A stretch of DNA of 34,262 nt from a virus. Its lineage: Duplodnaviria > Heunggongvirae > Uroviricota > Caudoviricetes. Both the position numbers and the translations under genes were made by a program. The notes under the pieces were generated by a model. It was not told the origin of the DNA, searched no databases, and was given only the letters and a program-made list of their open reading frames with translations. This document shows, piece by piece, positions 1,424 through 32,365 of the stretch; within the stretch, counting starts at the first letter, position 1, and every line of letters begins with the position of its first letter. Where the stretch lies: positions 244,967 to 279,228 of the IMG/VR virus record IMGVR_UViG_3300014208_000025, one strand, 5' to 3'.

Positions 1424-1838
1424 TGGTGGACGTGGGGGAAGTCGAATCCCCGTGTCCGTTATTACTAACATCCAGCACTACATGTTTGTTTCATTTTTGA
1501 TTTCGGTGACTGTGTGGAACGAACAAACCACGTTAATCACCTATGTTCTTAGTTATCTCGGATGTTGCCAAGAACCGAATTTACATCCTATCCCTCTGTT
1601 TTACGCCAGACTAACTTAGAGGAAGTCGGTCAATCTGACGGAATGGTTTCTTAGGCCATCGCGAACTCGGCTTCCATTGAAGTTACTTCCATTGCTGGAT
1701 TCACTTCAAATGAAAAGTCAAGGGTGCTTAAACGATTTGGTTTAGCATTTGATTTTTGTCATCTTTTTAACGAGACCCGACGACGACCTCGACATGCTCT
1801 GGGTGCCTATAATATCGGGTCGATACCAGTACACGCCC
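1424..1838 (-). ncRNA. ssrA: tmRNA (transfer-messenger RNA)
   Basis: 5' GGGCGUG pairs with 3' CACGUCC-A-CCA, including the G3-U70 alanine identity pair; T-arm with UUCGACU loop; internal tag ORF; 415 nt. Confidence 0.95.
1651..1746 (-). other. tmRNA tag reading frame (A)AKPNRLSTLDFSFEVNPAMEVTSMEAEFAMA*
   Basis: Resume codon GCT after AAAUCAAAU; open for 31 codons to TAA; hydrophobic Ala-ending C-terminus. Confidence 0.75.
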
Positions 1839-6464: not shown

Positions 6465-7559
6465 TTATTTCAAGACTTGGAACATGAGCTTCTTCAAATC
6501 TTCGTCGGACAATTCTTTACCATCCAACAGACGAAACAAGAAGGCGGCTCGGTTCGTGTCACCATACGCCGAAATAATCTTGCCCGCCTGTTCCTTGCGA
6601 GTCGGCAACGCACGGATGGAGTCCACGAAGCCCTTCATGTGAGCTACGATTTTCAAAACTTCCTTGTAACCTTCCGCAATCTTGGAAGCATTACCCTGAA
6701 CATCCGCCCATAGTTCGTAATCGAAGTTACAAATACAATCCTTGAACAATAAATATTCCGGCTTACCGTTGTTGAACCAAAAATCCATCAACTTTTCCAT
6801 TGACGCCAATTCAGACTTCATACGGTGCCGAATGAGATACCATTCAGATTTTACCTTGTGGATTTCCTGACCGTTCTTGGAATAGACGCAAACGCCTTCC
6901 TTGCCCGTCAACCACGCCGTCACTTCCGCCAACATGGAGTCAAAGGAAGCGAACGTGTAAGACTTCGGACGCTTTAATCCAAAAGTTTTCGCGGTTTGGT
7001 CTAAAAGAACTTGTGACCACAACGAATAATCTATATGATTAACCACACCCACCAAATACCAGTCAGGCGTATCACCATAATTGATGACAATTTTCTGAAC
7101 TGGAGAAGTCCATTCAAATAAAATTGAAAAATTCCAAGTATTATCTTTTGGTAAATGAGTCACAATAGAATTTAGGATTTTATCCTTGAAAATTTCAAGT
7201 TCATAACCGTTGTCCAGTTTGGAAGCATCAACCGTGCCACGAGTACGCAAGATGTAGTTACCCTTGTATTTGGAAACCACCAAAAGGGAACCATCCAACT
7301 TGTCAACGATAACGGTGCCGTTCAAAGATTGAGGCGGTGGGAATACTTCGGGCTTTTCGCCCATGTTAACGAACTTTGGGAAACCCGCAGACACTAACTC
7401 GCCCAAAGCGTTCCAAACACTAGACCTGAAAATCTTATTCTCCTGTGACCAGACCGAACCAATGTGGACAGGTTGAACTAATGAAAGGATTTCTCCATTC
7501 AGCATATGTTCATGAACCATAAATTGTTCACGGTCTATTTTTTCTAACGAAATGTTCAT
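6465..7559 (-). CDS. RNA ligase, T4 Rnl1-like
   Basis: Nucleotidyltransferase motifs FPKFVN, KLDGSL (motif I), FEW, EGVCV, KVKSEWY. Confidence 0.85.
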   Translation of the reverse strand: MNISLEKIDREQFMVHEHMLNGEILSLVQPVHIGSVWSQENKIFRSSVWNALGELVSAGFPKFVNMGEKPEVFPPPQSLNGTVIVDKLDGSLLVVSKYKGNYILRTRGTVDASKLDNGYELEIFKDKILNSIVTHLPKDNTWNFSILFEWTSPVQKIVINYGDTPDWYLVGVVNHIDYSLWSQVLLDQTAKTFGLKRPKSYTFASFDSMLAEVTAWLTGKEGVCVYSKNGQEIHKVKSEWYLIRHRMKSELASMEKLMDFWFNNGKPEYLLFKDCICNFDYELWADVQGNASKIAEGYKEVLKIVAHMKGFVDSIRALPTRKEQAGKIISAYGDTNRAAFLFRLLDGKELSDEDLKKLMFQVLK

Positions 7560-12289: not shown

Positions 12290-12589
12290 ACCTACAACCT
12301 AACACACAATTAGAATGTGTCAAATGATTTGTTTGGGTATTTTCTGATGGTTGACGTGGAGGAAATAACTCAAATTAGGAGTTGACAATTCACTAAAAGC
12401 GGTTAAATTCATAGATCATTAACATGGATTCATTGGTCGGTCCGTCCTCAGAAATGGGGTTGTAGCCATAAAGGTAGGTCAAACCACGTTATATGAACGG
12501 GAAATCAATTCTGGAATTAGGGGTGGCGTAACTTCCTCTGACGGTTTATCGTCGTTTCTATGGACAACTTAACACAAAACTTGAGTGTG

Positions 12590-12772
12590 TCAAATTTTTT
12601 GTTTACTTAACCATTCTTTCATATCCACCATGAACTTTTCACGGTCTTGGTGATAGAGGTAATCTCCATAAAGTCGAGTGACTTGGTGGTATTTACCGTT
12701 ATGATGGTTTGTCGTATTGACGGAAAGGGAATTGAGATATGCTCTATATCGTTTAATATCACCACGTTTCAT
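12590..12772 (-). CDS. hypothetical protein, leaderless
   Basis: Own promoter; stop is the TGA of the next TTGACA. Confidence 0.7.
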   Translation of the reverse strand: MKRGDIKRYRAYLNSLSVNTTNHHNGKYHQVTRLYGDYLYHQDREKFMVDMKEWLSKQKI

Positions 12773-17064: not shown

Positions 17065-17296
17065 TTGACAAACTCCGTTATTGTGTTATCTTGTTGGCAT
17101 AATAGAAGATGTGGCTGAAAGATGCCGGAGAATAGGGGACCGGAGGCTGCGCAGATTCTTTTTGAAAATAAAACTTGACAACGCCCGTTTTTGTGTTATC
17201 TTATGGTACACCACCCGACCCCTAATTCCCGAACCATATAGGCGCCTATTGGGCATGGGACATAGCACTTGACAACGGCTAAAAATGTGATAGATT
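17065..17296 (+). promoter_or_regulatory. three tandem rightward promoters inside the leftward array
   Basis: TTGACA at 17065, 17175 and 17269, each with N16 then TATCTT, TATCTT or TAGATT. Confidence 0.8.
17099..17163 (+). ncRNA. candidate small RNA with AUAGGGGA loop, copy 1
   Basis: Promoter-driven with no ORF; CCGG-AGAATAGGGGA-CCGG hairpin; ends in a T-run; second copy near 26125. Confidence 0.5.
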
Positions 17297-17330
17297 GAAA
17301 ATGAAGGCGGAGTGTGTCCGCCTATACAGG

Positions 17331-17567
17331 CTATTGGCGCCCGTGGTATGCGTTATGGAGTGTCCCAACCGAGACTTGGGAACACCGTCCACATTTCCAC
17401 TTCCCCTGAGTGCCCTCTGGTTTGAAGGGACTGTCAATGAATTTTTCCTCGAATCCCTCCCCTGTAAAAATTTGAGCCTTAACCTTGGGTTGATACCGTT
17501 CAATGAGCACCCATGAATGATGTTTGAACACCTTACAGACGACCCAAATTATGAAGTCTTGCCACAT
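17331..17567 (-). CDS. hypothetical Zn-binding protein
   Basis: C..H.W and CGRC pattern. Confidence 0.6.
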   Translation of the reverse strand: MWQDFIIWVVCKVFKHHSWVLIERYQPKVKAQIFTGEGFEEKFIDSPFKPEGTQGKWKCGRCSQVSVGTLHNAYHGRQ

Positions 17568-17589
17568 GTTATACTTGTTCTATGGGATT

Positions 17590-17775
17590 TCAATTCAGAG
17601 GTTTATCGGTTTTAACTACTCTGACATCTTGTGTTTCGATGATACGGTTGATGCCTCCCATGCGATATGTAAATTCGTTTTTCTTGACGCCGACCAAGTT
17701 AAAGATGCCATGGCCCACTTCCGTCTTTTTGGAAAACTTAAAATGGTCGCCGATTTTTAGTTGATTGAATTTCAT
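17590..17775 (-). CDS. hypothetical protein, leaderless
   Basis: TTGACA-N16-TAAGGT-N6-ATG. Confidence 0.7.
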   Translation of the reverse strand: MKFNQLKIGDHFKFSKKTEVGHGIFNLVGVKKNEFTYRMGGINRIIETQDVRVVKTDKPLN

Positions 17776-17917
17776 AAAGTTACCTTACCATTCTTTTTTG
17801 TTTTGTCAAGTGTGACCGTGCGATTTCTGGCAAGGAGTCTTTACGAAAAAGGGCCGTACGGCCCCCAAAGAAAACAACGCGGGGGGTACCCTCCCCCCGC
17901 CGACGGGTCAGTTACGA

Positions 17918-17991
17918 GTCAGATACTTGCCGTAACGAATCCAAATGTCAATGGGTCAGATACTTGCCGTAACGAATCCAAATGTCAATGG
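17918..17991. repeat. 37-bp perfect tandem duplication
   Basis: GTCAGATACTTGCCGTAACGAATCCAAATGTCAATGG x2. Confidence 0.95.
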
Positions 17992-18277
17992 CTTCGTCGG
18001 GTCGTTCAACGGCATACTTGGCTTCGCAGAGGCCGATGCCGGTCAGTTCACGGAGACGTTTGATGGCGGGAATTTTGCTGTTGTTGACGCCGCTGGTGTG
18101 CCAATTTGGAAATTCATGTCGCACACGACAGATGCCTTCGATGTAGTTCATGCTGGCGGGGGCCTTTGGAGTCATGTCTTCAATGGTGACATCGAGAGTG
18201 CCGAGGCCGAACAAGGCCAACTTCGGATGTTGTGTTAGTAACGTTTTTGCGTCTTCGAGAGTAAGAATGATTTTCAT
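17948..18277 (-). CDS. protein with a ribosomal protein bL12 (L7/L12) C-terminal-like domain
   Basis: SKIPAIKRLRELTGIGLCEAKYAVE matches the bL12 CTD motif KI..IK.VR..TGLGL.EAK..VE. Confidence 0.75.
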   Translation of the reverse strand: MKIILTLEDAKTLLTQHPKLALFGLGTLDVTIEDMTPKAPASMNYIEGICRVRHEFPNWHTSGVNNSKIPAIKRLRELTGIGLCEAKYAVERPDEAIDIWIRYGKYLTH

Positions 18278-18312
18278 GGTGGTAAAATACTCGATTATTT
18301 ATTGAAGTCAAG

Positions 18313-18627
18313 TTATTTCTTGACGGATTTCTTGGCCTTAGCCTTTTCCGCTTTATAAGCATCAACTAACGGAGTTGGGCTTTCCTTAACCAACTGTTTC
18401 GTCAGGCGGAGCCGTTGCCGTTCACAGGTGCCAACCGGCAACTGAGCCAGTTTCTCGGCAGTAGAAAGTTTGTCGTATTTGTCTTGACGGGCATACGCCT
18501 CGTGACGCTTGCGATCATTCTTGACGTGGGCCTTGGATTGACTGTAGTTCTCACGGCCCTTGCGAACAACCTTTTCACCGGTCGAAGTGGTGGATACGGA
18601 GGCTTGCGGATACTTTTGTTTGCTCAT
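18313..18627 (-). CDS. basic hypothetical protein, leaderless
   Basis: 104 aa, Lys/Arg-rich; own promoter. Confidence 0.75.
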   Translation of the reverse strand: MSKQKYPQASVSTTSTGEKVVRKGRENYSQSKAHVKNDRKRHEAYARQDKYDKLSTAEKLAQLPVGTCERQRLRLTKQLVKESPTPLVDAYKAEKAKAKKSVKK

Positions 18628-18665
18628 GGTGATAGGTTAGTATATTGTTTGTGAAATGTCAAGAA

Positions 18666-18929
18666 TTATTTTGAAGGATGCCGGGATTCAACCGTAATCC
18701 CCTTATCATTTGAAAAGTGTAAGGTATCACCTACTTCTGAAAACTCGATGGGTGCAACTAAATAACAAGTATATCCACTTTTTAGGGCTATGGTATAATA
18801 AGCAAATCCCGTTGCTTGATCCCGTGTAATTTTATCAAGCACTCTGGAACCGTTTTCGATTTTTGGCTCGGGCGCACAACCACAGATAAACAAAGTGGCT
18901 AGTATGATGCTGGATAAAAATGTTTTCAT
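18666..18929 (-). CDS. putative lipoprotein
   Basis: MKTFLSSIILATLFICGC signal peptide with a lipobox-like Cys. Confidence 0.6.
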   Translation of the reverse strand: MKTFLSSIILATLFICGCAPEPKIENGSRVLDKITRDQATGFAYYTIALKSGYTCYLVAPIEFSEVGDTLHFSNDKGITVESRHPSK

Positions 18930-19231
18930 TCGATTGTATGTAGGTTGAACTTAATTAATGTTTCGGCATTGTCAAGGATAAACTTGCGACATTCTTCATC
19001 ATCCTTGCCGCGGAACTTGAGAGTAATCCACCTCCAAGCACATGGTTCGGAGGTAGTTGCCTCTTTTTTGACGGTAAACATGACACGCCATAGCCCGTCT
19101 TTGGTTTGCCAACTGGGAGCAGAAATGGAGCCGACAATCTTGCCGTCTAACTTGATGTCACTGGATTGATAAGGATAACCCACGCCGTTCAGGCCGGTTT
19201 CCTTCTTCTCACGTTTGAAAGTGAATTTCAT
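18926..19231 (-). CDS. hypothetical protein, leaderless
   Basis: TTGACA-N16-TAGGGT-N6-ATG. Confidence 0.75.
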   Translation of the reverse strand: MKFTFKREKKETGLNGVGYPYQSSDIKLDGKIVGSISAPSWQTKDGLWRVMFTVKKEATTSEPCAWRWITLKFRGKDDEECRKFILDNAETLIKFNLHTIE

Positions 19232-19270
19232 ACCCACACCCTACCATTCTTTTCGGATTTGTCAAGTGGT

Positions 19271-19378
19271 TTATGTGACTCGAATAAACCACAGTCGGAT
19301 GTCAACCGGCACCCCTCCGATGAGCAAGCTCAAATGCCAGATGAAGGCAAAGGCAAAGGCGAAAAGGTAGCGTTTCAT
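19271..19378 (-). CDS. small hydrophobic peptide (35 aa)
   Basis: TTGACA..TATAAT-N6-ATG; hydrophobic stretch. Confidence 0.5.
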   Translation of the reverse strand: MKRYLFAFAFAFIWHLSLLIGGVPVDIRLWFIRVT

Positions 19379-19782
19379 ACCGTCATTATATCACCTTTCG
19401 CCGAAATGTCAACTCCCTGTTCTTTCAAGAATGATACAACTTCTTCTACGGTATCAAGAGTGTTAATGATATGGGGTTTGCCCGAGGGATTGAGGGAGAA
19501 GCCTTGACTTCGTTTGAAGATTTCTTCACGGGAGAGCCGGTCGTTTTCCTCGATTGACCTGAGTTGATTACAACCGTAACAGGCCAAAACTTTCTTGACT
19601 TCTCCGGGTTTTCGTTTTACCCAACGAGCCGGATTTAATTTAGAAAACAAATGATCCACCGTTGCAGCATTATCGGCAAGTTTACCATCGGAACAATTAG
19701 TTAATTGGGTCGGAATATTACACCAATGACAGTTTGGATTCTTGTTCCACATTCTTATTTTATCCGCTCGATGATTACTCAT
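19375..19782 (-). CDS. HNH endonuclease
   Basis: CHWC...ATVDH...VLACYGCNQLR. Confidence 0.75.
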   Translation of the reverse strand: MSNHRADKIRMWNKNPNCHWCNIPTQLTNCSDGKLADNAATVDHLFSKLNPARWVKRKPGEVKKVLACYGCNQLRSIEENDRLSREEIFKRSQGFSLNPSGKPHIINTLDTVEEVVSFLKEQGVDISAKGDIMTV

Positions 19783-19820
19783 AGAACAAATGGGGAGAGG
19801 AGGCTCGTCGCAATTCTCTG

Positions 19821-19997
19821 TCACTTCCGTCTGATCGGAACGAACCACGATTCTATTTCATCAAGTTGACGTTGAAGCGAATCCCGTTCGTCGGTGAGGT
19901 CGGAAATCTGACGGTTCAAATCTTCCTTGGTGGCACAGAGCGGACATGCGTGTCCGTCAAAACAAATTTCGTCGTGGGTTGAGCTACAAAGATTCAT
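19821..19997 (-). CDS. small Zn-binding/coiled-coil protein (58 aa)
   Basis: C..H..C..CPLC then a heptad-like region; ATGA overlap with the upstream gene. Confidence 0.6.
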   Translation of the reverse strand: MNLCSSTHDEICFDGHACPLCATKEDLNRQISDLTDERDSLQRQLDEIESWFVPIRRK

Positions 19998-20224
19998 TGT
20001 TGGGTAGCGGTTGCGACCATAAATTCGGTCAGTTCTTTGTTGAGGTCATTAAGACTAGTAATTTTTTCAATGAAGATGGCTTTCTTGCCACGATGGGCCA
20101 TGACGGAATAAGCAATCACTCCATTGCGGATGCGACTGAGGAAACCTATCATTGATGGAATATCAACATATTTTACAAAAATTTCATCCCTATGGAGAAG
20201 ATAGATTTCAAACTTCATGGCCAT
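19994..20224 (-). CDS. hypothetical protein
   Basis: 76-aa ORF in the operon. Confidence 0.6.
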   Translation of the reverse strand: MAMKFEIYLLHRDEIFVKYVDIPSMIGFLSRIRNGVIAYSVMAHRGKKAIFIEKITSLNDLNKELTEFMVATATQQ

Positions 20225-20231
20225 AAGTATA

Positions 20232-20450
20232 TCATTCCTTCACTTTTCTGTCAAGGTCCAATTTGGCGATTTCACCAGTGTTGCCAACAATGGTCAGAGA
20301 ATCACGGTCTTCGTTGAAACCTTCCGCCTTTTCAAAGTAGGCGGCAATGCGCTTAATGTTGATGGGACGTTTGCTGGTAATGACGTAAACGAATGGAGCA
20401 CAGTTGTCAAATTCAACCAGAACGACTTTCTTGTGTAGTTTTTTCTTCAT
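20232..20450 (-). CDS. hypothetical protein, leaderless
   Basis: TTGACA-N16-TACCAT-N6-ATG. Confidence 0.7.
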   Translation of the reverse strand: MKKKLHKKVVLVEFDNCAPFVYVITSKRPINIKRIAAYFEKAEGFNEDRDSLTIVGNTGEIAKLDLDRKVKE

Positions 20451-20629
20451 GGTGTCATGGTAACATTGTTTTGGGATTTGTCAAATTGTTTTGCTAAACG
20501 TTCACGTTGTTCTTTGGCTTGTTTAGTTGTAACACGAGGCATGGTTAACCTATACACAAGTAAAGCCTCTTCATCTCCATTCTTTAATGCTTGTTCAGCC
20601 GCTTTTACGCCAAGGAAACCCTTGGCCAC
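20447..20629 (-). CDS. hypothetical protein
   Basis: 60-aa GTG-start ORF with no clear promoter. Confidence 0.4.
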   Translation of the reverse strand: MAKGFLGVKAAEQALKNGDEEALLVYRLTMPRVTTKQAKEQRERLAKQFDKSQNNVTMTP

Positions 20630-20784
20630 AAACTGAATGAAACGGAGAAACTTTTGACCAAGTTAACCATTTCGGAAACCTTTCTCGGCAGTGATGTGTT
20701 TCGCCTTGGCAAGTTTCTGGTGGAAAACACTTGACAATTCCACAGCATGGTGTAGAGTGACCATGTTAAAGAAAACACAAAGTT

Positions 20785-20955
20785 ATGACACCCATGCCCG
20801 CCAATCCAGTCATCGTTCTCCATGTAACCTCACACGGCGAAGTCGTCGCCAATCAAAATAACATCGGCAACGACCTACGCATCGTGGTTGTGACCGATGA
20901 CAAAACCTATCAAGAAGAATCGGCCGGTATCCCTTATTCCGGCAAAATGGAATAG
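20785..20955 (+). CDS. small hypothetical protein (56 aa, MTPMPANPVIVLHV...)
   Basis: Follows the promoter at 20731 and an A/C-rich leader; precedes a terminator. Confidence 0.6.
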   Translation: MTPMPANPVIVLHVTSHGEVVANQNNIGNDLRIVVVTDDKTYQEESAGIPYSGKME

Positions 20956-20989
20956 TTTTAAGTCTTGAGGGCCAAAGTTCCCCAAGCAA

Positions 20990-21049
20990 TGTTGTGTCAT
21001 GCCGAGAGCACTCCTGATTGAGTGTTTCCGACATGACACAACGTTTTTT
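20990..21049 (+). terminator. long-hairpin intrinsic terminator
   Basis: GTTGTGTCATG..AGCACTC/GAGTGTT..CATGACACAAC followed by T6. Confidence 0.75.
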
Positions 21050-21086
21050 CATTGACAAACATTCGTCGGCATGTATATTTAAGGCC

Positions 21087-21284
21087 ATGAAACTAAGATT
21101 TAAGAAAGACGTGTCCGTAGATTTTCGTTCCAAACGTTTACAGGAGTGGGTTGACCATACCTTTCACAAAGATGAAATCGTGGAAGCTCATGTCATAACC
21201 TATGGCGGATGGTCTGATATGGCCTTTCCAAATGGTGATTTGGCGGAGTCTGTTAAATCAGATAGTTTTGAAGTTCTCGCTTGA
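21087..21284 (+). CDS. hypothetical protein, possible paralog of 33675-33968
   Basis: Own promoter; stop within the next TTGACA. Confidence 0.7.
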   Translation: MKLRFKKDVSVDFRSKRLQEWVDHTFHKDEIVEAHVITYGGWSDMAFPNGDLAESVKSDSFEVLA

Positions 21285-21317
21285 CATTACTGAAAGGTAT
21301 GTTAAGGTATTGGTATC

Positions 21318-21397
21318 GGAGGATGGTGGAGCGCATCGAGCCAACCGGGCCACTAAGAACAGGAAGCGCACTCGTCGGCTGAGACCTGTTACCTCCA
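21318..21397 (+). ncRNA. candidate 80-nt three-way-junction RNA
   Basis: Promoter at 21281 with no ATG at +1; GGAGG/CCTCC-A closing stem; GGTGG/CCACT and AACAGG/CCTGTT arms. Confidence 0.55.
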
Positions 21398-21409
21398 ATT
21401 TAATTTTGC

Positions 21410-21490
21410 CCGAGCGTCCCATAAGTGCCAGAAGGGTTTGTGGCAGTCTAAAACGGCCGGTGTACAACGGTTGAATAGCAGGGGACACGG
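21410..21490 (+). ncRNA. candidate multi-stem RNA
   Basis: GTCCC/GGGAC closing stem enclosing TGCCA/TGGCA and CGGCCG/CGGTTG hairpins. Confidence 0.45.
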
Positions 21491-21559
21491 TTCTGTTGAC
21501 ATGTAGGCAGACTCGTGATATCGTAGGTGGTTCAACTCCACGTCTCAGGCACCATTTTT

Positions 21560-21805
21560 ATGAAAACGAAAATCTTGCCGTTTTATCGGCAGACAGTCAA
21601 CGGAAAAGTCATCACGATCAAGAACGTCAAGATTACCGTCTTCGATGATGGCAACGAGGGGTTTCCGGCCTCCGAGTGCCAACGGTTCGAGCGGGCCGTG
21701 GAAAAGGTGTTTCCCGGCTGGTATCATCGGTTCACCAAGACGGGCAAGCACAGAAAAAATTGTGTGTCCTGTCGGCGTTACGGAAAAATGGGAGTCAAGC
21801 GATGA
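21560..21805 (+). CDS. hypothetical protein
   Basis: Start MKTKIL downstream of the promoter at 21497. Confidence 0.65.
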   Translation: MKTKILPFYRQTVNGKVITIKNVKITVFDDGNEGFPASECQRFERAVEKVFPGWYHRFTKTGKHRKNCVSCRRYGKMGVKR

Positions 21806-21932
21806 TTACAGCAACCGCCATGAAGTTTGAGAATGGTATGGTTCTACAATCCCCGGCTTGGTTTATTCAGCGAAGACCTTTGGTGATTCTTCTTGACAAT
21901 TCTTCTATGTATAGTAAGATACTGTTGAATAT

Positions 21933-22196
21933 ATGACAAGTAGCACAACAATGGCCCCCACGCCACCGCCAAAGCGGCAAGCACCCAGCCCCAACCAAAA
22001 GTTGAGTGGTGGGGGTACTACCCCTCCCTCCATATCCCAAGCGGAGAAGTATAAACTCGCTTACATGGATTCGTGGACCAAATTGCCCAAGTGGAAACAA
22101 TTAGCCATTGAAGATGATCGCAAAAAAGGGATTGACAATGGCCGCTTGATGAACGAGTTTCTTCACGAAGTAACACGTCTAGCAGAATTATCCTAA
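21933..22196 (+). CDS. hypothetical protein
   Basis: 87 aa; promoter at 21893. Confidence 0.65.
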   Translation: MTSSTTMAPTPPPKRQAPSPNQKLSGGGTTPPSISQAEKYKLAYMDSWTKLPKWKQLAIEDDRKKGIDNGRLMNEFLHEVTRLAELS

Positions 22197-22199
22197 TTT

Positions 22200-22442
22200 A
22201 TGAGCCTGTTTCATATCCACAAATTCGGCCCCATTCAAGGGGATAACTTTCAATACTGTGCGACCTGCGGTGTTGCCAAAGCGGCTCCGAACCCATGTAA
22301 GGAAGGACACAAATATAAAGAAGATAGCGTTTCTGAAATAACCAATCATTTCAATAGAACCCAAATAGTTAAAAATCTTGTCTGTATTCGTTGTGGCCAC
22401 ATGGTTCAGTTCAACGCGACAACGGGTCAATACCAAAATTAA
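22200..22442 (+). CDS. Zn-ribbon-like hypothetical protein
   Basis: CATCG, C..GH and CIRCG motifs. Confidence 0.7.
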   Translation: MSLFHIHKFGPIQGDNFQYCATCGVAKAAPNPCKEGHKYKEDSVSEITNHFNRTQIVKNLVCIRCGHMVQFNATTGQYQN

Positions 22443-22445
22443 TTT

Positions 22446-22643
22446 ATGGGACGTACATTCAAAGAAAAACCTTGGAAGTATAAGAACGACAAAAACTTCC
22501 AAAAAAAACAGAAGAAACATTTGAAAGGTCAACGACCGTTCAATACACCGACCAATGATGTGTTAGGTGACAATGGCCAAAATCCTCTATTTGCTACCGA
22601 TATCCCACCATACGAAACATTGGATTTTGACCCATCCAATTAA
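22446..22643 (+). CDS. hypothetical protein
   Basis: 65 aa; basic N-terminus and acidic C-terminus. Confidence 0.65.
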   Translation: MGRTFKEKPWKYKNDKNFQKKQKKHLKGQRPFNTPTNDVLGDNGQNPLFATDIPPYETLDFDPSN

Positions 22644-22680
22644 CACTTGACAAATTAAAAACTTCTGTTAAGTTGACCCC

Positions 22681-22881
22681 ATGATTACATTAGCATTCAT
22701 TCCGTTTTTGTGCCCTTGGGATGACATTTTTGTTTGGATTCCTTTGCTTACCATCATTGGAGTTTTCGTAAAAAAGAAATTTAAATGGTGCCGCAAGTCG
22801 TGTGGTTGTCATTGTCACAACAAGAAACAAATCACAACTTCTATAAAGGATGGACATTCCTATAATCAGACTGAGAAATGA
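22681..22881 (+). CDS. small membrane protein, leaderless
   Basis: Hydrophobic segment followed by a Cys/His cluster. Confidence 0.6.
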   Translation: MITLAFIPFLCPWDDIFVWIPLLTIIGVFVKKKFKWCRKSCGCHCHNKKQITTSIKDGHSYNQTEK

Positions 22882-23099
22882 AAACTCACAAAGAAATCCG
22901 TCGTAACATAAAAGAATGTTTTCATTTGTTTGCTCGTAATGGAGTATGGGGAACGTGCGTTGATTGTCCAACCAATGGCGACGGTCAAATTCAACCTGAA
23001 CTATGTGAAAATTTTGATAGATACGATCATAGATTAACTTTGACATCGTTAGTGGAACAATATAACTTTGCCCTTAATGAAACTCATAATCCTCAGTGA
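22878..23099 (+). CDS. hypothetical protein
   Basis: 73 aa; ATGA overlap. Confidence 0.55.
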   Translation: MKTHKEIRRNIKECFHLFARNGVWGTCVDCPTNGDGQIQPELCENFDRYDHRLTLTSLVEQYNFALNETHNPQ

Positions 23100-23697
23100 C
23101 GTTCATGGAAACATTTTGCGGTGTCAAGATGTTGCTTTGAGGAATCCCAGCACTCCAATCGTTCAACTGGGTGACTTGGGCGTGGGTTTCGTTCCTCGGG
23201 AAGTCATCGAAAATTTGCCTAAAAACTTCTTTTTCTTTCCCGGCAATCATGACAACCGAAAGATTGCAATGACGTTTGACAGGTGTTTGGGTCACTTTGG
23301 CCCATACTTCTGGGATACAATTTTCATTGTATCAGGAGCCGACTCCAAAGATAAGGCGGTTCGAACTGAGGGAGTCAACTGGTGGCCGGATGAAGAATTG
23401 ACTTATGAACAAGGGCAAGACTGTATTGACAAATGGGCCAAAAGTAAAGCCGAAGTCATCATTTCTCATGATTGTCCACAACGGATCGCTGAGGCATTCT
23501 TTTTGATTTACGATAAATCACGGACGCGGCAGATTCTTGATGCCATGATTGACGCCAGACGGCCAAGAGTTGTGCTATTCGGCCATCACCACCGACCATT
23601 CTCCAAACACCATGAAGGCGTGGAATATTGTTGTTTGAAAATAGATGAAACAATTTCCCTTGACATTTCGGAAAACAAGATTACTTTGACACCATGA
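23077..23697 (+). CDS. calcineurin-like metallophosphoesterase
   Basis: All five motifs present: SDVHG, LGDLG, PGNHD, ISHD, FGHHH. Confidence 0.9.
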   Translation: MKLIILSDVHGNILRCQDVALRNPSTPIVQLGDLGVGFVPREVIENLPKNFFFFPGNHDNRKIAMTFDRCLGHFGPYFWDTIFIVSGADSKDKAVRTEGVNWWPDEELTYEQGQDCIDKWAKSKAEVIISHDCPQRIAEAFFLIYDKSRTRQILDAMIDARRPRVVLFGHHHRPFSKHHEGVEYCCLKIDETISLDISENKITLTP

Positions 23698-23903
23698 AAC
23701 GAAGTTGGTTACTAAAATTAACACCGAAACAATTTGCGAAACTGTATAAAGGTTTGCATTTCCGGTTTCGATTCTATTTGAATCTGGCGTTTGAAACTGT
23801 CACCTATGAGGGCGTCACTCTCACCATTCACGTTCCCAACGACAACATTTCCAATGAAATTTCTGACTACATCAACGGTTTCGCTTGTGCGATTTATCCC
23901 TGA
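23694..23903 (+). CDS. hypothetical protein, leaderless
   Basis: TTGACA-N16-TACTTT-N6-ATG. Confidence 0.65.
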   Translation: MKRSWLLKLTPKQFAKLYKGLHFRFRFYLNLAFETVTYEGVTLTIHVPNDNISNEISDYINGFACAIYP

Positions 23904-23906
23904 CGT

Positions 23907-24101
23907 ATGACCAAATGGAATAAAGATCAATATCTTAGCCACGTTGGCCAAGAACCGGTTTTGGATGACCTTGACCGTTGTAATTGTCCGGAAGCTGACC
24001 AGCCGGGACATCACATGTGCGGCATTTGTGAACATCATTTGCCGGTATTTAGATGTCAAGTTTGTATCGCCAAACCATTTGGAACCGTAAAAAGAATTTG
24101 A
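23907..24101 (+). CDS. Cys/His-rich phage protein
   Basis: DDLDRCNC..GH..CG.C..H..P.F.C pattern. Confidence 0.7.
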   Translation: MTKWNKDQYLSHVGQEPVLDDLDRCNCPEADQPGHHMCGICEHHLPVFRCQVCIAKPFGTVKRI

Positions 24102-24133
24102 CAGACAGAAAATTTTCAGTAAGGTATCACTAT

Positions 24134-24499
24134 ATGACTTACAAAAATTGGTGTCTTCATTCAACTGTTATTCTTGCCGAGGCCGATGTTCACAACAAAT
24201 GGGCAGCTGAAGCCAAAAGAAATTTGTTAACCAATATTGGTCCGAGAATAGCCAAACTCAATGAAACAGGATACATAGGGTGTGGATATCATTACAGTCT
24301 TGAACAAGACTTTGGCAAGTTGTTTGGGTTGTTGGCAATCCGTTGGCAACCGTGTGCCAATTGGTGTAAACACGTAGAACGTGACAGAGACAAGGCAATG
24401 CTTGCCGAAGTCATTTATAGTTCTCTCATTGAACAGTTGACGGAAGCTGAAGAATCAGTTCCCAAATTCAAGAAAATTTATCCTCGCAAAAAGTTATGA
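24134..24499 (+). CDS. hypothetical protein
   Basis: Start MTYKNW after the promoter at 24098. Confidence 0.7.
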   Translation: MTYKNWCLHSTVILAEADVHNKWAAEAKRNLLTNIGPRIAKLNETGYIGCGYHYSLEQDFGKLFGLLAIRWQPCANWCKHVERDRDKAMLAEVIYSSLIEQLTEAEESVPKFKKIYPRKKL

Positions 24500-24870
24500 A
24501 ACCAAACTATCTAAATGAAATGGCGGATGTTTACACTCGCATGGCCATCGGCGAACACGTTCACACTCCATTCAACATGATTTTTCAAGGTGTTGACGCG
24601 ACCCATGCCGCCGGCGTATTTCAGTTTCAAGGCGAACCCGAACTTATCAAACGGTTAACGGGCGGAGCCAACTTGAACAGCAATCACGTTCTGTGGATTG
24701 GTGACGCATTCTTTCGCCCGAAAATCATTACTCAGTCACGCCATTTAATGGGTAACGGAATCTCTGGAATTTTCACCACTGGATTCTGCCATGTTGACGA
24801 GTGGGTGAAAAACGGAAAAGTTTTGAAAGGTGAATTACCACCTGAAACGAAAGCAACACAATACGCATGA
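24496..24870 (+). CDS. hypothetical protein
   Basis: 124 aa; ATGA overlap. Confidence 0.75.
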   Translation: MKPNYLNEMADVYTRMAIGEHVHTPFNMIFQGVDATHAAGVFQFQGEPELIKRLTGGANLNSNHVLWIGDAFFRPKIITQSRHLMGNGISGIFTTGFCHVDEWVKNGKVLKGELPPETKATQYA

Positions 24871-25010
24871 AAACCCCAAAAAACAGACAAGACGAAGAAG
24901 ACGAATTGCCGGTTGACACCTTGGCTCAAGAAGTGGCCGAGTCACTTCCCGGCTATCAAGAATATCAGAAAGAAGCCCGTGGCGACTCTTTGAATTTCGG
25001 TGATTACTAA
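24867..25010 (+). CDS. small acidic protein (47 aa)
   Basis: ATGA overlap with the upstream gene. Confidence 0.55.
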   Translation: MKTPKNRQDEEDELPVDTLAQEVAESLPGYQEYQKEARGDSLNFGDY

Positions 25011-25053
25011 GAGAAATTACTTGACAATTATTTCGTTCGTGTTATGGTTGTAA

Positions 25054-25186
25054 TGGTAAAACATGGACAGCATGAACGTCCTGCTAACTCCGGAGTATGA
25101 AAGGTGGACATGCGTTCGATTGATTGAGGGTTGCTCCTCATGTGTTGAAAGATGATGGTTCGACTCCACTCCATGTTTTATCACCA
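25054..25186 (+). ncRNA. candidate tRNA-like or Y-RNA-like ncRNA (133 nt)
   Basis: Own promoter at 25021; 14-bp terminal stem TGGTAAAACATGGA/TCCATGTTTTATCA then CCA; T-arm TGG-TTCGACT-CCA. Confidence 0.65.
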
Positions 25187-25317
25187 ATTTCTTAAACAAA
25201 TCACTTGACTTAGCGGAAACTTATGTTAAGGTAACTCCATGATAAAGATTGGAACACAATTTCGGAACTATATCGAATACAACGCTCGTTGGGCGACTAT
25301 TAACATCCAATTTTGAT

Positions 25318-25512
25318 ATGGCACACTCACGCATTATCGTTAAGGTCAAGGATTGTATCGCCTACATTGAGGGATGTGGTTGGAAGTTCATCGGGCGCCA
25401 ATACGGTTCTTATTGGTTCAAGGGCAACAACGGCAAAACCAACATGGCCGGAAGTAACACCATTCCATTCACCTTGACCGAACTCCGCCACGCCTACAAT
25501 AACGGATGGTAA
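25318..25512 (+). CDS. hypothetical protein
   Basis: Likely start MAHSRI. Confidence 0.65.
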   Translation: MAHSRIIVKVKDCIAYIEGCGWKFIGRQYGSYWFKGNNGKTNMAGSNTIPFTLTELRHAYNNGW

Positions 25513-25513
25513 T

Positions 25514-25714
25514 ATGCCAACACGAATCGTCACACGAGATATCCGAACCGTCAACGGCATCACTGTTGAAGTTCAAGGCATTAAACGGCTGGAATATACC
25601 GGAGAATGGGCACCGGCTGGCTTCTATGTCATGTTGAACGACAAACGGATTGGCAACTTTTGGGGTTGGCCAACCGATGATGATATAGCAAAAGTTTTGG
25701 CGAAATCCGCTTGA
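25514..25714 (+). CDS. hypothetical protein
   Basis: 66 aa; stop within the next TTGACA. Confidence 0.7.
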   Translation: MPTRIVTRDIRTVNGITVEVQGIKRLEYTGEWAPAGFYVMLNDKRIGNFWGWPTDDDIAKVLAKSA

Positions 25715-25744
25715 CATTTGTGAAAACAATGTTAGATTCTTCAC

Positions 25745-25861
25745 ATGATTGAAATAGTATTTGGCATTCTTTTACTCGGAATTCTGGTCGCAGGGTTTAT
25801 GGCTGCTCCGCCGTTGTGGCCCACGGATGCAGAAATCAACAAGGAAACCCACCATGATTGA
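25745..25861 (+). CDS. small membrane peptide (38 aa), leaderless
   Basis: MIEIVFGILLLGILVAGFMAA; own promoter. Confidence 0.55.
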   Translation: MIEIVFGILLLGILVAGFMAAPPLWPTDAEINKETHHD

Positions 25862-25902
25862 CACGTTAAGAATCTTGGTCAGTTGGCAATGGTGGTATTA
25901 TC

Positions 25903-26091
25903 ATGAAAACTTTCAAAGAAGCCAAGAAAGAAGCTGACCGTGTTGGAGGAGTGGTAACGTGGTGGGTTTCCTACTCCGTTCACAAAGCGAAGGATTACAG
26001 TTGGGCTACCTGTGGTTATCCTAAATACGTTTCCAAGAAAGCGGTCAAGTTCTTTCAAGACCGCTGGGCAAAAAAGAAAATGAAGAAATAA
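25903..26091 (+). CDS. basic hypothetical protein
   Basis: 62-aa ORF. Confidence 0.65.
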   Translation: MKTFKEAKKEADRVGGVVTWWVSYSVHKAKDYSWATCGYPKYVSKKAVKFFQDRWAKKKMKK

Positions 26092-26124
26092 TTTGACAAT
26101 ACTGAAAACAATGTTATGGTGTAT

Positions 26125-26190
26125 ATGTAACAGGGTATGAAAGCCCGAGGATAGGGGACCGGAGAGTGCGTTGATATCTTTAACGTTATC
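26125..26190 (+). ncRNA. candidate small RNA with AUAGGGGA loop, copy 2
   Basis: Promoter at 26093; leaderless ATG is followed directly by TAA; shares TGAAAG..CCG..ATAGGGGACCGGAG..TGCG with 17099-17163. Confidence 0.5.
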
Positions 26191-26245
26191 TGAAATAGTT
26201 GAAAGAATTATTTGACAATAGTGAAATCAATGTTATAGTGTCAAC

Positions 26246-26416
26246 ATGATAACAGAACATAACATTGTGACCGATAAAGGAAACACTATTCAGGTCTTCT
26301 ATAACAGCGACAACAATCTTCTTGTAGTTGATCTTATAGCCAAGAACGAGTCGGGCGGCAACGAAATACTTCGCCAGACGTTGGATGAATCCAAATTACT
26401 CAAACATACAACCTAG
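26246..26416 (+). CDS. small hypothetical protein (56 aa), leaderless
   Basis: TTGACA-N16-TATAGT-N6-ATG. Confidence 0.65.
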   Translation: MITEHNIVTDKGNTIQVFYNSDNNLLVVDLIAKNESGGNEILRQTLDESKLLKHTT

Positions 26417-26788: not shown

Positions 26789-27613
26789 ATGAAATTATTA
26801 AAGTTTAGTGACGGAAACAGCAAACTACCAAAGGGTATAACAACTTTTTCGTTGCCGGCATCCTACTCATGTCCGGGAGCAAACGAGTGTCGTTCTCAAG
26901 CAGTTAAGACAAGTGAAGGATTCAGAATTAAAGATGGTCCTAACTGTCAATTCCGTTGTTTCGCCGCCATTGACGAAGTTCTTAAACCGAACGTCAGAGA
27001 ACAACGATGGCACAATTTCAACCTTTTGAAAACGTGTAAATCCACAGTTGAAATGGTGGAATTGATCGTTAAATCGTTACCGGCATCGGCGTTCAATTTA
27101 CCCGTGAGATTACATGTCAGTGGAGATTTTTTCTCGCAAATGTATTTTGATGCGTGGTTGGAAGTTGCTCGAAAGTTTCCCCAACGTATCTTTTACGGTT
27201 ACAGTAAATCGTTATTGGTATGGGTGGCTCGTAAAGACAACATGCCTCCGAATTTCAAATTGGTGGCTAGTCGAGGCGGAAAATGGGATAACCTAATTGA
27301 GACTCATAAACTCAGATCGGCCAAGGTGGTTTACAGTGAAGCCGAAGCAATCTCTCTTGGTCTGTCAATAGACCATGACGATTCATATTGTTACAAGGGT
27401 ACTGACGATTTTGCCCTACTCCTTCACGGCACGCAACCAGCCGGCAGTGCATCGGCCAAAGCGTGGCAGGAGTTGAAGAAAATTGGCAAGGGCGGCTACC
27501 ACAATCAGAAACGGGGCCGGGGTTGGGGCGGCAAGGATTACGAGGGTCAACCCCTCAAAAAAAACTATGGTAGGGGTACCCCCTCCCCCAAGGGTATGAA
27601 AGTTCTCGCTTGA
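26789..27613 (+). CDS. GP88-family phage protein
   Basis: GNSKL..FSLPA..SCPGA..C..CFA and VRLHVSGDFFS..Y..W..FYGYSKS pattern. Confidence 0.75.
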   Translation: MKLLKFSDGNSKLPKGITTFSLPASYSCPGANECRSQAVKTSEGFRIKDGPNCQFRCFAAIDEVLKPNVREQRWHNFNLLKTCKSTVEMVELIVKSLPASAFNLPVRLHVSGDFFSQMYFDAWLEVARKFPQRIFYGYSKSLLVWVARKDNMPPNFKLVASRGGKWDNLIETHKLRSAKVVYSEAEAISLGLSIDHDDSYCYKGTDDFALLLHGTQPAGSASAKAWQELKKIGKGGYHNQKRGRGWGGKDYEGQPLKKNYGRGTPSPKGMKVLA

Positions 27614-29202: not shown

Positions 29203-29358
29203 ATGAATCCCTACGGAGAATGTTGTATCTGTCATCAAGCCTTCAAAAAGTGGGATCGGAAACATCGTATTCAAATCATCAAATGTGGCGTCAGGTCAGA
29301 GGAAGAATACGATTACTGTTCGCAATGTTACTCCATTCACATTGAGAAAAACGATTGA
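29203..29358 (+). CDS. small Zn-finger protein (51 aa)
   Basis: CCIC..YCSQC; stop within the next TTGACA. Confidence 0.55.
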   Translation: MNPYGECCICHQAFKKWDRKHRIQIIKCGVRSEEEYDYCSQCYSIHIEKND

Positions 29359-29393
29359 CACTCCTTGGATGTTCTAATATACTTCCATACCCT

Positions 29394-29636
29394 ATGAAGA
29401 AAAATCTAACTCTCTTAATTGTGGCATTCACTTTGATTGCCGGAACTACCATTCGGGTTGACGCCAAACAGACTCCACGAGAACAACATCACGAACAACA
29501 TGACGACCGAGAGGATCAAGATGATCGTGACGGTAACTGTCATAGTATTCCTGACTCTGGGAGTACTCTCCCCCTACTGGGAGCGGGCTTCATTGGTTTA
29601 TTCTTCGTTCGTCGCAAGTTTCAAGTTGTCGGTTGA
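29394..29636 (+). CDS. minimal VPDSG-CTERM (PEP-CTERM-like exosortase substrate) protein
   Basis: Signal peptide MKKNLTLLIVAFTLIAG..VDA; charged linker; C-terminal IPDSGST, transmembrane helix and RRK. Confidence 0.8.
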   Translation: MKKNLTLLIVAFTLIAGTTIRVDAKQTPREQHHEQHDDREDQDDRDGNCHSIPDSGSTLPLLGAGFIGLFFVRRKFQVVG

Positions 29637-29796: not shown

Positions 29797-30501
29797 ATGA
29801 ATATGTTGATATCTAAAGACGAACTAAATAATCTTGAATCCAATGATTTAGTTCCATTTGAATGTGAAATTTGTAAGTCAACGTTTTACAAAAAGAAACA
29901 TTATGCTCTTAGAGGTCTAAAAGGAACTCGAAACTATTCTGCTTGTAGTAAAGAATGCTGGAAAAAAGTTATAGGTAATAGACATAGACACGAATGTATT
30001 ACATTAACATGTGATTGGTGTAAAAAAGAATTTCAACGTAAACCAAATCTTCACCTGAGACGAAAAAAAATGTTATCTCAACATTGTTTTTGTTCTCGAA
30101 AATGTTCTTATCTGTATAGACAATCCGACAATTCATTTGGTAAACGTTCCACATTAGAAAAATGGATTGAGCAAAAATTGACCGTTGATTTTCCTACCAT
30201 CAGCATCGAATATAATAACATTACAACAATCAATGGAGAATTAGATATTTTTATACCTACGTTGGATTTAGCATTTGAAATTAACGGCGTCGGTCATTAC
30301 AAACCGATATACGGAGTTGATAATTTCAAAAAAAGAATTAAAAAAGACGGAGAGAAAATTGAAGAATGTTTGGCAAGAAAAATTGACTTGTTTGTTATTG
30401 ATTGCAAAGAATTTAATACGCTCAAAGAGGATAGAGATATTAAATACTACAATCGAATTTGTGAAGAAATATCACGAAAATGGCGAGCGGTCTGCGGGTA
30501 A
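29797..30501 (+). CDS. Zn-finger plus PD-(D/E)xK/Vsr-like endonuclease, probable homing endonuclease
   Basis: Two CxxC..CS..C fingers; ELDIFIP..LAFEINGVGHY nuclease motif; AT-rich; adjacent to a tRNA-like gene. Confidence 0.75.
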   Translation: MNMLISKDELNNLESNDLVPFECEICKSTFYKKKHYALRGLKGTRNYSACSKECWKKVIGNRHRHECITLTCDWCKKEFQRKPNLHLRRKKMLSQHCFCSRKCSYLYRQSDNSFGKRSTLEKWIEQKLTVDFPTISIEYNNITTINGELDIFIPTLDLAFEINGVGHYKPIYGVDNFKKRIKKDGEKIEECLARKIDLFVIDCKEFNTLKEDRDIKYYNRICEEISRKWRAVCG

Positions 30502-32278: not shown

Positions 32279-32365
32279 TGGTGGGCTCACAGGGAATCGA
32301 ACCCCGATCTGTCGTTTATGAGACGACGGCTCTACATCTTGCGAATACCATTGAGCTATGAGCCC
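32279..32365 (-). tRNA. tRNA with CAT anticodon (Ile2-like) and an enlarged D-loop
   Basis: GGGCTCA/TGAGCCC-A-CCA acceptor; GTCGT-CTCATAA-ACGAC anticodon arm; canonical T arm; 20-nt D-loop. Confidence 0.85.

Follow-up and report, generated by a model that had tools for sequence, protein, structure and literature searches.

A conserved small non-coding RNA unit in a clade of huge T4-like environmental phages

Two promoter-driven copies of one element

In this work, we analyzed the final 34 kb of a virus record that consists of a single contig of 279,228 bp and has a G+C content of 40% (IMG/VR record IMGVR_UViG_3300014208_000025, positions 244,967 to 279,228; this whole stretch of 34,262 nucleotides is hereafter called the window, and positions refer to it unless indicated otherwise). 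We found that two short stretches on the plus strand, designated copy A and copy B, are copies of one small non-coding RNA unit, which is strongly conserved, had not been catalogued before and is present in a clade of huge T4-like environmental phages. The phage encodes a T4-type major capsid protein (Gp23), and its genome carries 37 tRNA genes and one tmRNA gene.

Each copy follows a promoter of the type that heads the early genes of this phage. Analysis of 113 promoters of the form TTGAC[AT]-N16/17-TAnnnT over the whole genome (positions 7593-34002 in the window) revealed that 41 of them have an ATG exactly 6 nt past the -10 hexamer, suggesting that the early genes are leaderless and that the seventh nucleotide after the -10 hexamer could be used as the predicted transcript start. 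Copy A is preceded by a promoter at 17065-17092 (TTGACA, a 16-nt spacer containing TG, and TATCTT), which would start transcription at 17099, and copy B by a promoter at 26093-26120 (TTGACA, 16 nt, TATGGT) with a predicted start at 26127. The RNA units extend over 17099-17165 (covariance-model matches of 58.4 and 37.5 bits) and 26127-26199 (72.1 and 65.9 bits), respectively. In copy A, a 5' hairpin (P1, 17112-17127) is followed by the linker GAGAA (17128-17132), a core (17133-17141), a spacer (17142-17157) and a degenerate 3' module from 17158 onwards. The corresponding parts of copy B are P1 at 26133-26146, the linker GAGGA at 26147-26151, the core at 26152-26160, a spacer at 26161-26177 and the 3' module CTTTAACGTTAT at 26178-26189. 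Copy A has lost the canonical 3' module, which is retained in its close relative L234, and faces convergent genes, and copy B is followed by a leaderless gene (ATG at 26246) and then by a GP88 gene (26789-27613).

The two copies had first been noticed in a sequence-only reading because of an identical 14-mer, ATAGGGGACCGGAG, which lies at 17132-17145 and 26151-26164, both on the plus strand, with the predicted transcript start 33 nt (copy A) and 25 nt (copy B) upstream. This observation was exact: when up to two mismatches to the 14-mer were allowed, two matches were found versus 0.10 expected (at least two matches in 0 of 100 shuffles), and a third copy was absent from the entire 279,228-bp genome. 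The full promoter described before each copy and the wider common pattern (TGAAAG.., CCG, AGRATAGGGGACCGGAG and TGCG) were also recovered, the latter by pairwise alignment. The view that both cassettes lack open reading frames (ORFs) was correct for cassette B, which contains no ORF of at least 40 amino acids, and needed qualification for cassette A, which is crossed by two such ORFs that extend through promoters. Neither predicted RNA begins with ATG.

A family with a covarying hairpin and an invariant core

An exact-word scan of IMG/VR returned mostly chance matches, together with five contigs that shared a much wider context behind TTGAC promoters. The proteins of these five contigs shared 40-60% identity with their counterparts in the window, and gene order was conserved; in relatives, the counterpart of copy B was an element located a few hundred bases 5' of the GP88 (PF17338) gene. 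Loci of relatives were collected via GP88 from viral and metagenome collections and searched with two covariance models (R1 and R2) and a pattern scan, which recovered 31 distinct members under strict rules and, besides these, the looser ones L019, L021, L180, L208, L118 and L126. Five copies were present in one 250-kb contig and two in most other contigs. All members lay on the same strand as the neighboring genes, and a promoter of the type TTGAC-N16-TAnnnT ended 9-23 nt 5' of P1 in 24 of the 31. A DNA site had been expected to occur in both orientations regardless of promoters; all members were instead co-oriented with their promoters.

The element was not recognized in other collections. 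Neither copy matched any of the 4227 models of Rfam 15 at the gathering score, and only noise of 10-16 bits was observed at E values up to 10. Searching the exact 17-mer of the core in 185,579 GTDB species genomes gave 25 single, unrelated chance matches and no arrays, so that a bacterial origin of the element was dropped. In the cultured Synechococcus phages B23 and S-SRM01, GP88 was present and the element absent; strict linkage to the GP88 gene was rejected, the element being confined to closer relatives. A literature search found nothing on such an RNA.

Comparison of the members revealed a working unit of approximately 75 nt, which consists of the transcript start, P1, a purine linker (RAGRR), the tract U-R-GGG-N-A-Y-C, 16-17 free bases and (A)CUUUAACG. 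First, P1 is 11-30 nt long, has 13 different closing stems among the members, and varies in sequence and length even between copies inside one phage. Its cells were paired in 93.3% of cases versus 69.5% in shuffles, and it contained 19 double-sided changes versus 4.4 in shuffles (neither value was reached in any of 500 shuffles); the alignment was fitted to the model, which is a bias in favor of P1, and gap-free subgroups showed the same compensations. Control registers obtained by sliding P1 were 15-65% paired. Such covariation, together with G-U pairs on the plus strand, points to an element that acts as RNA or single-stranded DNA. Second, the 5-nt linker has A at its second position in 25 of 26 members and G at its third in all 26, and in the nine-base core U1, G3-5, A7 and C9 show no or almost no variation. 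This G-tract is single-stranded and lies 3' of P1. Third, between core and 3' module the sequence is free and the number of bases fixed, so that (A)CUUUAACG lies 25-26 nt from the core start in 30 of the 31 members; the distance from the module to the next promoter is 22, 26, 33-35 or 41-43 nt. Finally, most members lack a terminator and continue into the following promoter, and in L234 a GC-rich hairpin follows 45 nt further on. The unit could be transcribed on its own or form the 5' end of a longer RNA.

The idea of a conserved hairpin RNA was therefore only partly right. P1 covaries and the element is non-coding and strand-specific, whereas AUAGGGGA, which had been placed in a hairpin loop, lies outside any such loop with P1 5' of it, and the hairpin as originally drawn had to be abandoned, since the minimum-energy folds of both copies, on both strands, scored no better than shuffled sequences (z = +0.27 and -0.82). 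RNAalifold on the family returned P1 only and no second family-wide helix. Several further structures were tried and rejected: a closing helix formed by the 5' flank with the 3' module, or a pseudoknot involving the P1 loop (registers inconsistent, RNAalifold supporting P1 only); a closing helix in B-type members, whose 5' strand would lie upstream of the predicted start; and a second helix in the register of 16S rRNA helix 45, in which 43.5% of the cells were paired. The 'b' copies have another conserved block, AAAUA(G/C)UU(A/G)AA, 11 nt past the 3' module (26190-26205 in the window; also L060, L061, L126 and L129), which could form an AU-rich hairpin with CUUUAAC.

The near-constancy of the 9-nt core, among relatives whose neighboring proteins have drifted to approximately 50% identity, points to very strong selection. 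With regard to known systems, the unit resembles the orphan phage and metagenome RNA motifs RAGATH, GOLLD and ROOL in its comparative-genomics origin, its occurrence in uncultivated phages, its covarying stem and its unassigned role; unlike them, it has no sequence or structure match among the 4227 Rfam models, and it is far smaller than GOLLD and ROOL and mostly single-stranded. RNA anti-CRISPRs, which are solitary repeat mimics, are likewise short promoter-driven phage RNAs with a hairpin and a conserved flank, but here P1 varies between copies in one phage and the core 17-mer never occurs in arrays. The PeSL cassettes of T4-type phages share the phage type and the dense early promoters heading tiny cassettes; however, a PeSL marks the border of a cassette and combines a promoter with the preceding terminator, whereas the unit described here is conserved, transcribed according to its predicted promoter, and contains an invariant core in a cassette without a gene.

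The early region around the two copies

Only 20 of 121 long genes of the phage are preceded by a Shine-Dalgarno (SD) sequence, the remainder having none. The motif TATTTATA was found directly 5' of the ATG in many long genes and is a possible late promoter, which, judging from its position, would likewise give leaderless starts. A search of the phage for CsrA, Hfq, NusB, RegB and MotA genes found none.

Two observations concern the immediate flanks of the copies. On the minus strand, a promoter-like site TTGACA-18-TATTGT at 26244-26215 would yield an RNA antisense to copy B, and relatives do not share this site. The cassette that follows copy A contains the perfect 12-bp palindrome ATAGGCGCCTAT at 17238-17249 (plus strand), and the same motif occurs after the family member in L180 (approximately 2040-2055). 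In L021, a distant relative, positions 2020-2200, directly downstream of the element, contain iteron-like direct repeats (GGAATGTGG three times and a AGAATAAGATATT-type unit three to four times) that may represent a replication origin or a regulatory region.

The same early region also contains a T4 RnlA-type RNA ligase gene (6465-7559, minus strand), a metallophosphoesterase gene (23068-23697, plus strand) and an HNH/homing-endonuclease-like gene (29797-30501, plus strand). The tmRNA (1424-1838, minus strand; 122.9 bits) has a long tag of 31 residues that ends in FAMA. A tRNA(CAU) at 32282-32365 on the minus strand, with a 14-nt insert in the D-loop, was missed by ARAGORN and matched the Rfam tRNA model with 59.5 bits. 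Outside the window, at genome positions 240539-240614 on the minus strand, lies an amber-suppressor-like tRNA with the anticodon CUA, which ARAGORN labels Pyl; despite this tRNA, no genome-wide signal of TAG recoding was observed in the phage. Finally, a 93-aa ORF (29355-29636, plus strand) has a C-terminal VPDSG-CTERM sorting signal (TIGR03778; 30.9 bits versus a curated cut-off of 22). This signal family is typical of Verrucomicrobia, and the ORF gives a hint, from its sequence, of a host with an exosortase system, perhaps a member of the Verrucomicrobia.

Possible roles of the unit

We tentatively favor a role in base pairing, which we consider possible rather than probable: the G-tract would work by pairing with a C-rich complement, which some relatives would carry in cis and this phage in trans, on two C-type RNAs. 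Host RNA polymerase would transcribe the unit from the consensus early promoters of the huge T4-like phage, and the invariant G-tract would then be its business end, pairing with a complement of the form CCCCUA... In some relatives such a complement would lie a few bases downstream and give rise to a second hairpin, and in others 30-60 nt downstream. In the phage studied here it would be provided by two separate promoter-driven RNAs, running from 12559 to 12480 on the minus strand and from 17209 to 17262 on the plus strand.

The first of these C-type cassettes (12480-12593, minus strand) has a promoter at 12593-12566, a P1-like hairpin at 12553-12540, the linker AGAGG at 12539-12535 and ACCCCTAATTCC at 12524-12513. 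The second is an ORF-less, promoter-driven cassette next to copy A (17175-17262, plus strand), in which ACCCCTAATTCC at 17218-17229 is the best trans complement to the linker and core of copy A. These two cassettes are the only promoter-proximal non-ATG sites in this genome at which CCCCTAAYY occurs. When 145 promoter-proximal transcripts were ranked as trans partners of copy A, the adjacent cassette took rank 2 (-17.2 kcal/mol), being the best partner apart from a cis-antisense site, and the minus-strand sibling took rank 9. Since the minus-strand C-type RNA has the same hairpin-plus-linker scaffold, the G-type and C-type RNAs would be expected to bind and titrate each other. Besides the element's own loci, no antisense target stood out within the phage genome.

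Relatives offer similar indications. A strong local complement to the G-tract was present within 22 nt in 13 of the 31 members; folds of L226, L121 and L043 contained a second hairpin (z between -1.5 and -2.7), and CCC(C)UAACC was found 30-60 nt downstream in L061a and L021. In three independent cases the complement tracks the linker, namely GAA/UUC in copy A, GGA/CC in L021 and L061a, and GAGAG/CUCUU in L066. In addition, the scaffold and the 3' module recur in L118 and L126, which are members of the C-type or of a hybrid form. Of the roles proposed in the sequence-only reading, that of a base-pairing guide is the one that survives, as a best guess.

Several results weigh against pairing. The duplex would be short, with 6 bp and another 2-5 interrupted pairs, copy B ranks its C-type partners only 10 and 29, and the downstream complement was not significant family-wide (shuffle fractions of 0.04-0.97); a helix in a fixed register pairs only the above-mentioned 43.5% of cells. 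No C-type cassette was found in the 40 kb around the five copies of G004, nor in the 20-kb stretches of G003 and G002. The scarcity of terminators, most members running into the next promoter, fits a cis-acting leader better than a discrete small RNA. Pairing is also silent on the conserved 3' module and its fixed spacing.

A leader of the nut or rrn boxA kind, which by analogy would load a host Nus factor or a phage factor onto the transcribing polymerase via a boxB-like hairpin and a boxA-like CUUUAAC, appears rather doubtful. Polymerase modified in this way would read through intrinsic or Rho-dependent terminators in the cassettes that lie downstream. The element begins 2-16 nt past the transcript start, the genes behind it have the same orientation with no intervening terminator, and the number of copies, about two per genome, is like that of nutL and nutR. 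The 3' module, at a fixed distance from the core, has CUUUAAC in common with E. coli rrn boxA, which we take to be UGCUCUUUAACAA, and a G-N-C-R-A pentaloop is found in all five of the 11-nt P1 hairpins, one of which has the loop GACAA, presumably that of P22 boxB. The unit accordingly shares with the lambda and P22 nut sites and the rrn boxB-boxA leader a promoter-proximal hairpin, a U-rich linear CUUUAAC box and about two early-region copies. However, its boxes differ from theirs in order and spacing. The boxA consensus is GCUCUUUAACAA or CGCUCUUA; of this, CUUUAAC is kept in 30 of the 31 members, and GCU is absent. The P1 loops mostly have 6-8 nt or more, a GNRA-like pentaloop, which in boxB stands beside boxA, occurs in only 5 of the 31 P1 hairpins, P1 lies approximately 40 nt from the box, and the G-tract, the most conserved part of the unit, is an extra feature with no counterpart in nut sites. 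Copy A has no box and no genes downstream, every downstream gene has its own promoter, and the phage has neither a detected NusB gene nor an identified N-like protein.

It is unlikely that the unit is an abundant early RNA that titrates a host RNA-binding protein via its exposed purine tract, as a mimic of the 16S rRNA 3' end or as a CsrA/Rsm sponge, a role to which the consensus promoters before both copies would be suited. Canonical copies contain three GGA motifs within 19 nt, and, like CsrB and RsmZ, the unit is a small non-coding RNA behind a strong promoter with several GGA motifs. Nevertheless, the sponge put forward in the sequence-only reading did not hold up: sponges are defined by numerous A(N)GGA motifs, the majority of which lie in hairpin loops, with 5-22 GGA motifs in CsrB and RsmZ, whereas here there are at most three, in the single-stranded linker and core, and the sole invariant one lies in GGGGAC. 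There is no terminator, the Csr/Rsm models of Rfam were unmatched, and no CsrA gene was found in the phage. An SD-like decoy, also suggested at that time, is unlikely to matter because the phage genes hardly use SD sequences.

A more specific form, which we regard as very improbable, is that the RNA mimics the 16S rRNA 3' minor domain, comprising helix 45 and the tail, and soaks up IF3 or another factor docking there. The C-domain of IF3 is located at helix 45/helix 24 (PMC8266586), and IF3 discriminates against leaderless mRNAs, according to the part of PMC8138138 that cites Tedin et al.; with more than 40 leaderless early genes, titration of IF3 would tilt host ribosomes towards the phage messages. 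Core, spacer and module are colinear with GUAGGGGAACCUGCGG..GGAUCAC..CCUUA of E. coli 16S rRNA, the likeness to helix 45 and the 3' tail comprising GUAGGGGA, CC(U)GCG, (G)GAUC and C(U)UUUA, and GUAGG and CCUGC could form the 5-bp upper stem of helix 45 in approximately 10 members. Alignment to the 16S 3' end gave a positive z in 30 of the 31 members (mean 1.89), with the rRNA of E. coli, which may not be that of the host; the 3'-end window had a median rank of 78 among 2058 windows of the rRNA operon and was the top one for L216, L228 and L234. However, shuffled queries scored equally well elsewhere in the operon (mean fraction 0.96), the anti-SD CCUCC is not conserved, the loop has 9 nt where helix 45 has GGAA, and the low pairing in the helix-45 register applies here as well; the likeness is a resemblance, homology not being shown. 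Mimicry of, or antisense to, rRNA in general (L1 stalk, H93, 23S rRNA 612-629 and 16S helix 45) was rejected, the best p value in a first test being approximately 0.07-0.1 and the family-wide test suggestive and not significant.

A site acting at the level of DNA is quite improbable, be it a middle-type promoter, a replication origin primed by transcription or an operator at which a dimeric regulator would control the next promoter. In its favor, the 3' module forms a perfect 14-16-bp palindrome in L060b, L086a and L086b, further palindromes such as that at 17238-17249 lie nearby, the module is often 33-35 or 41-43 bp ahead of the next -35 hexamer, the spacing from core to module is fixed with the intervening sequence free, and the L021 element lies within an 800-bp non-coding region that includes the iteron-like repeats. 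On the other hand, P1 covaries with G-U pairs on the plus strand, the left half of the palindrome is far better kept than the right, the module keeps a closer distance range to the core (25-26 nt) than to the promoter that follows (22-43 nt), the element has one strict orientation with respect to the promoter upstream of it, and no evident MotA-like gene was found in the phage.

Scarcely credible is a tiny gene of 5-8 codons that ends at the TAG within the 14-mer and is perhaps read through by the tRNA with the CUA anticodon: an in-frame ATG..TAG does exist at 17109-17135 and 26137-26154 and in L028a, and such a tRNA is encoded, but L021, L033 and others have no start codon, no ORF frame is conserved (the frame past TAG varies among members or stops at once), the ATG is a mere part of the P1 loop consensus AU(G/C)AAA and lies away from the transcript start, unlike that of the leaderless genes of this phage, and TAG recoding is absent from the genome.

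Our results define a new RNA family, which has clear boundaries and for which a seed alignment and a covariance model are available, and they indicate that some of the tiny promoter-driven cassettes in the large early regions of huge phages, whose products are almost all uncharacterized, are RNA genes. If the 16S-mimic or the antitermination explanation were true, the unit would represent a new viral way to steer host translation or transcription by RNA alone. With regard to the pairing that we favor, the G-type and C-type forms may work as a pair. The finding also raises the question of which early step of takeover depends on an abundant RNA rich in G when the messages of the phage start with AUG and ignore the SD sequence.

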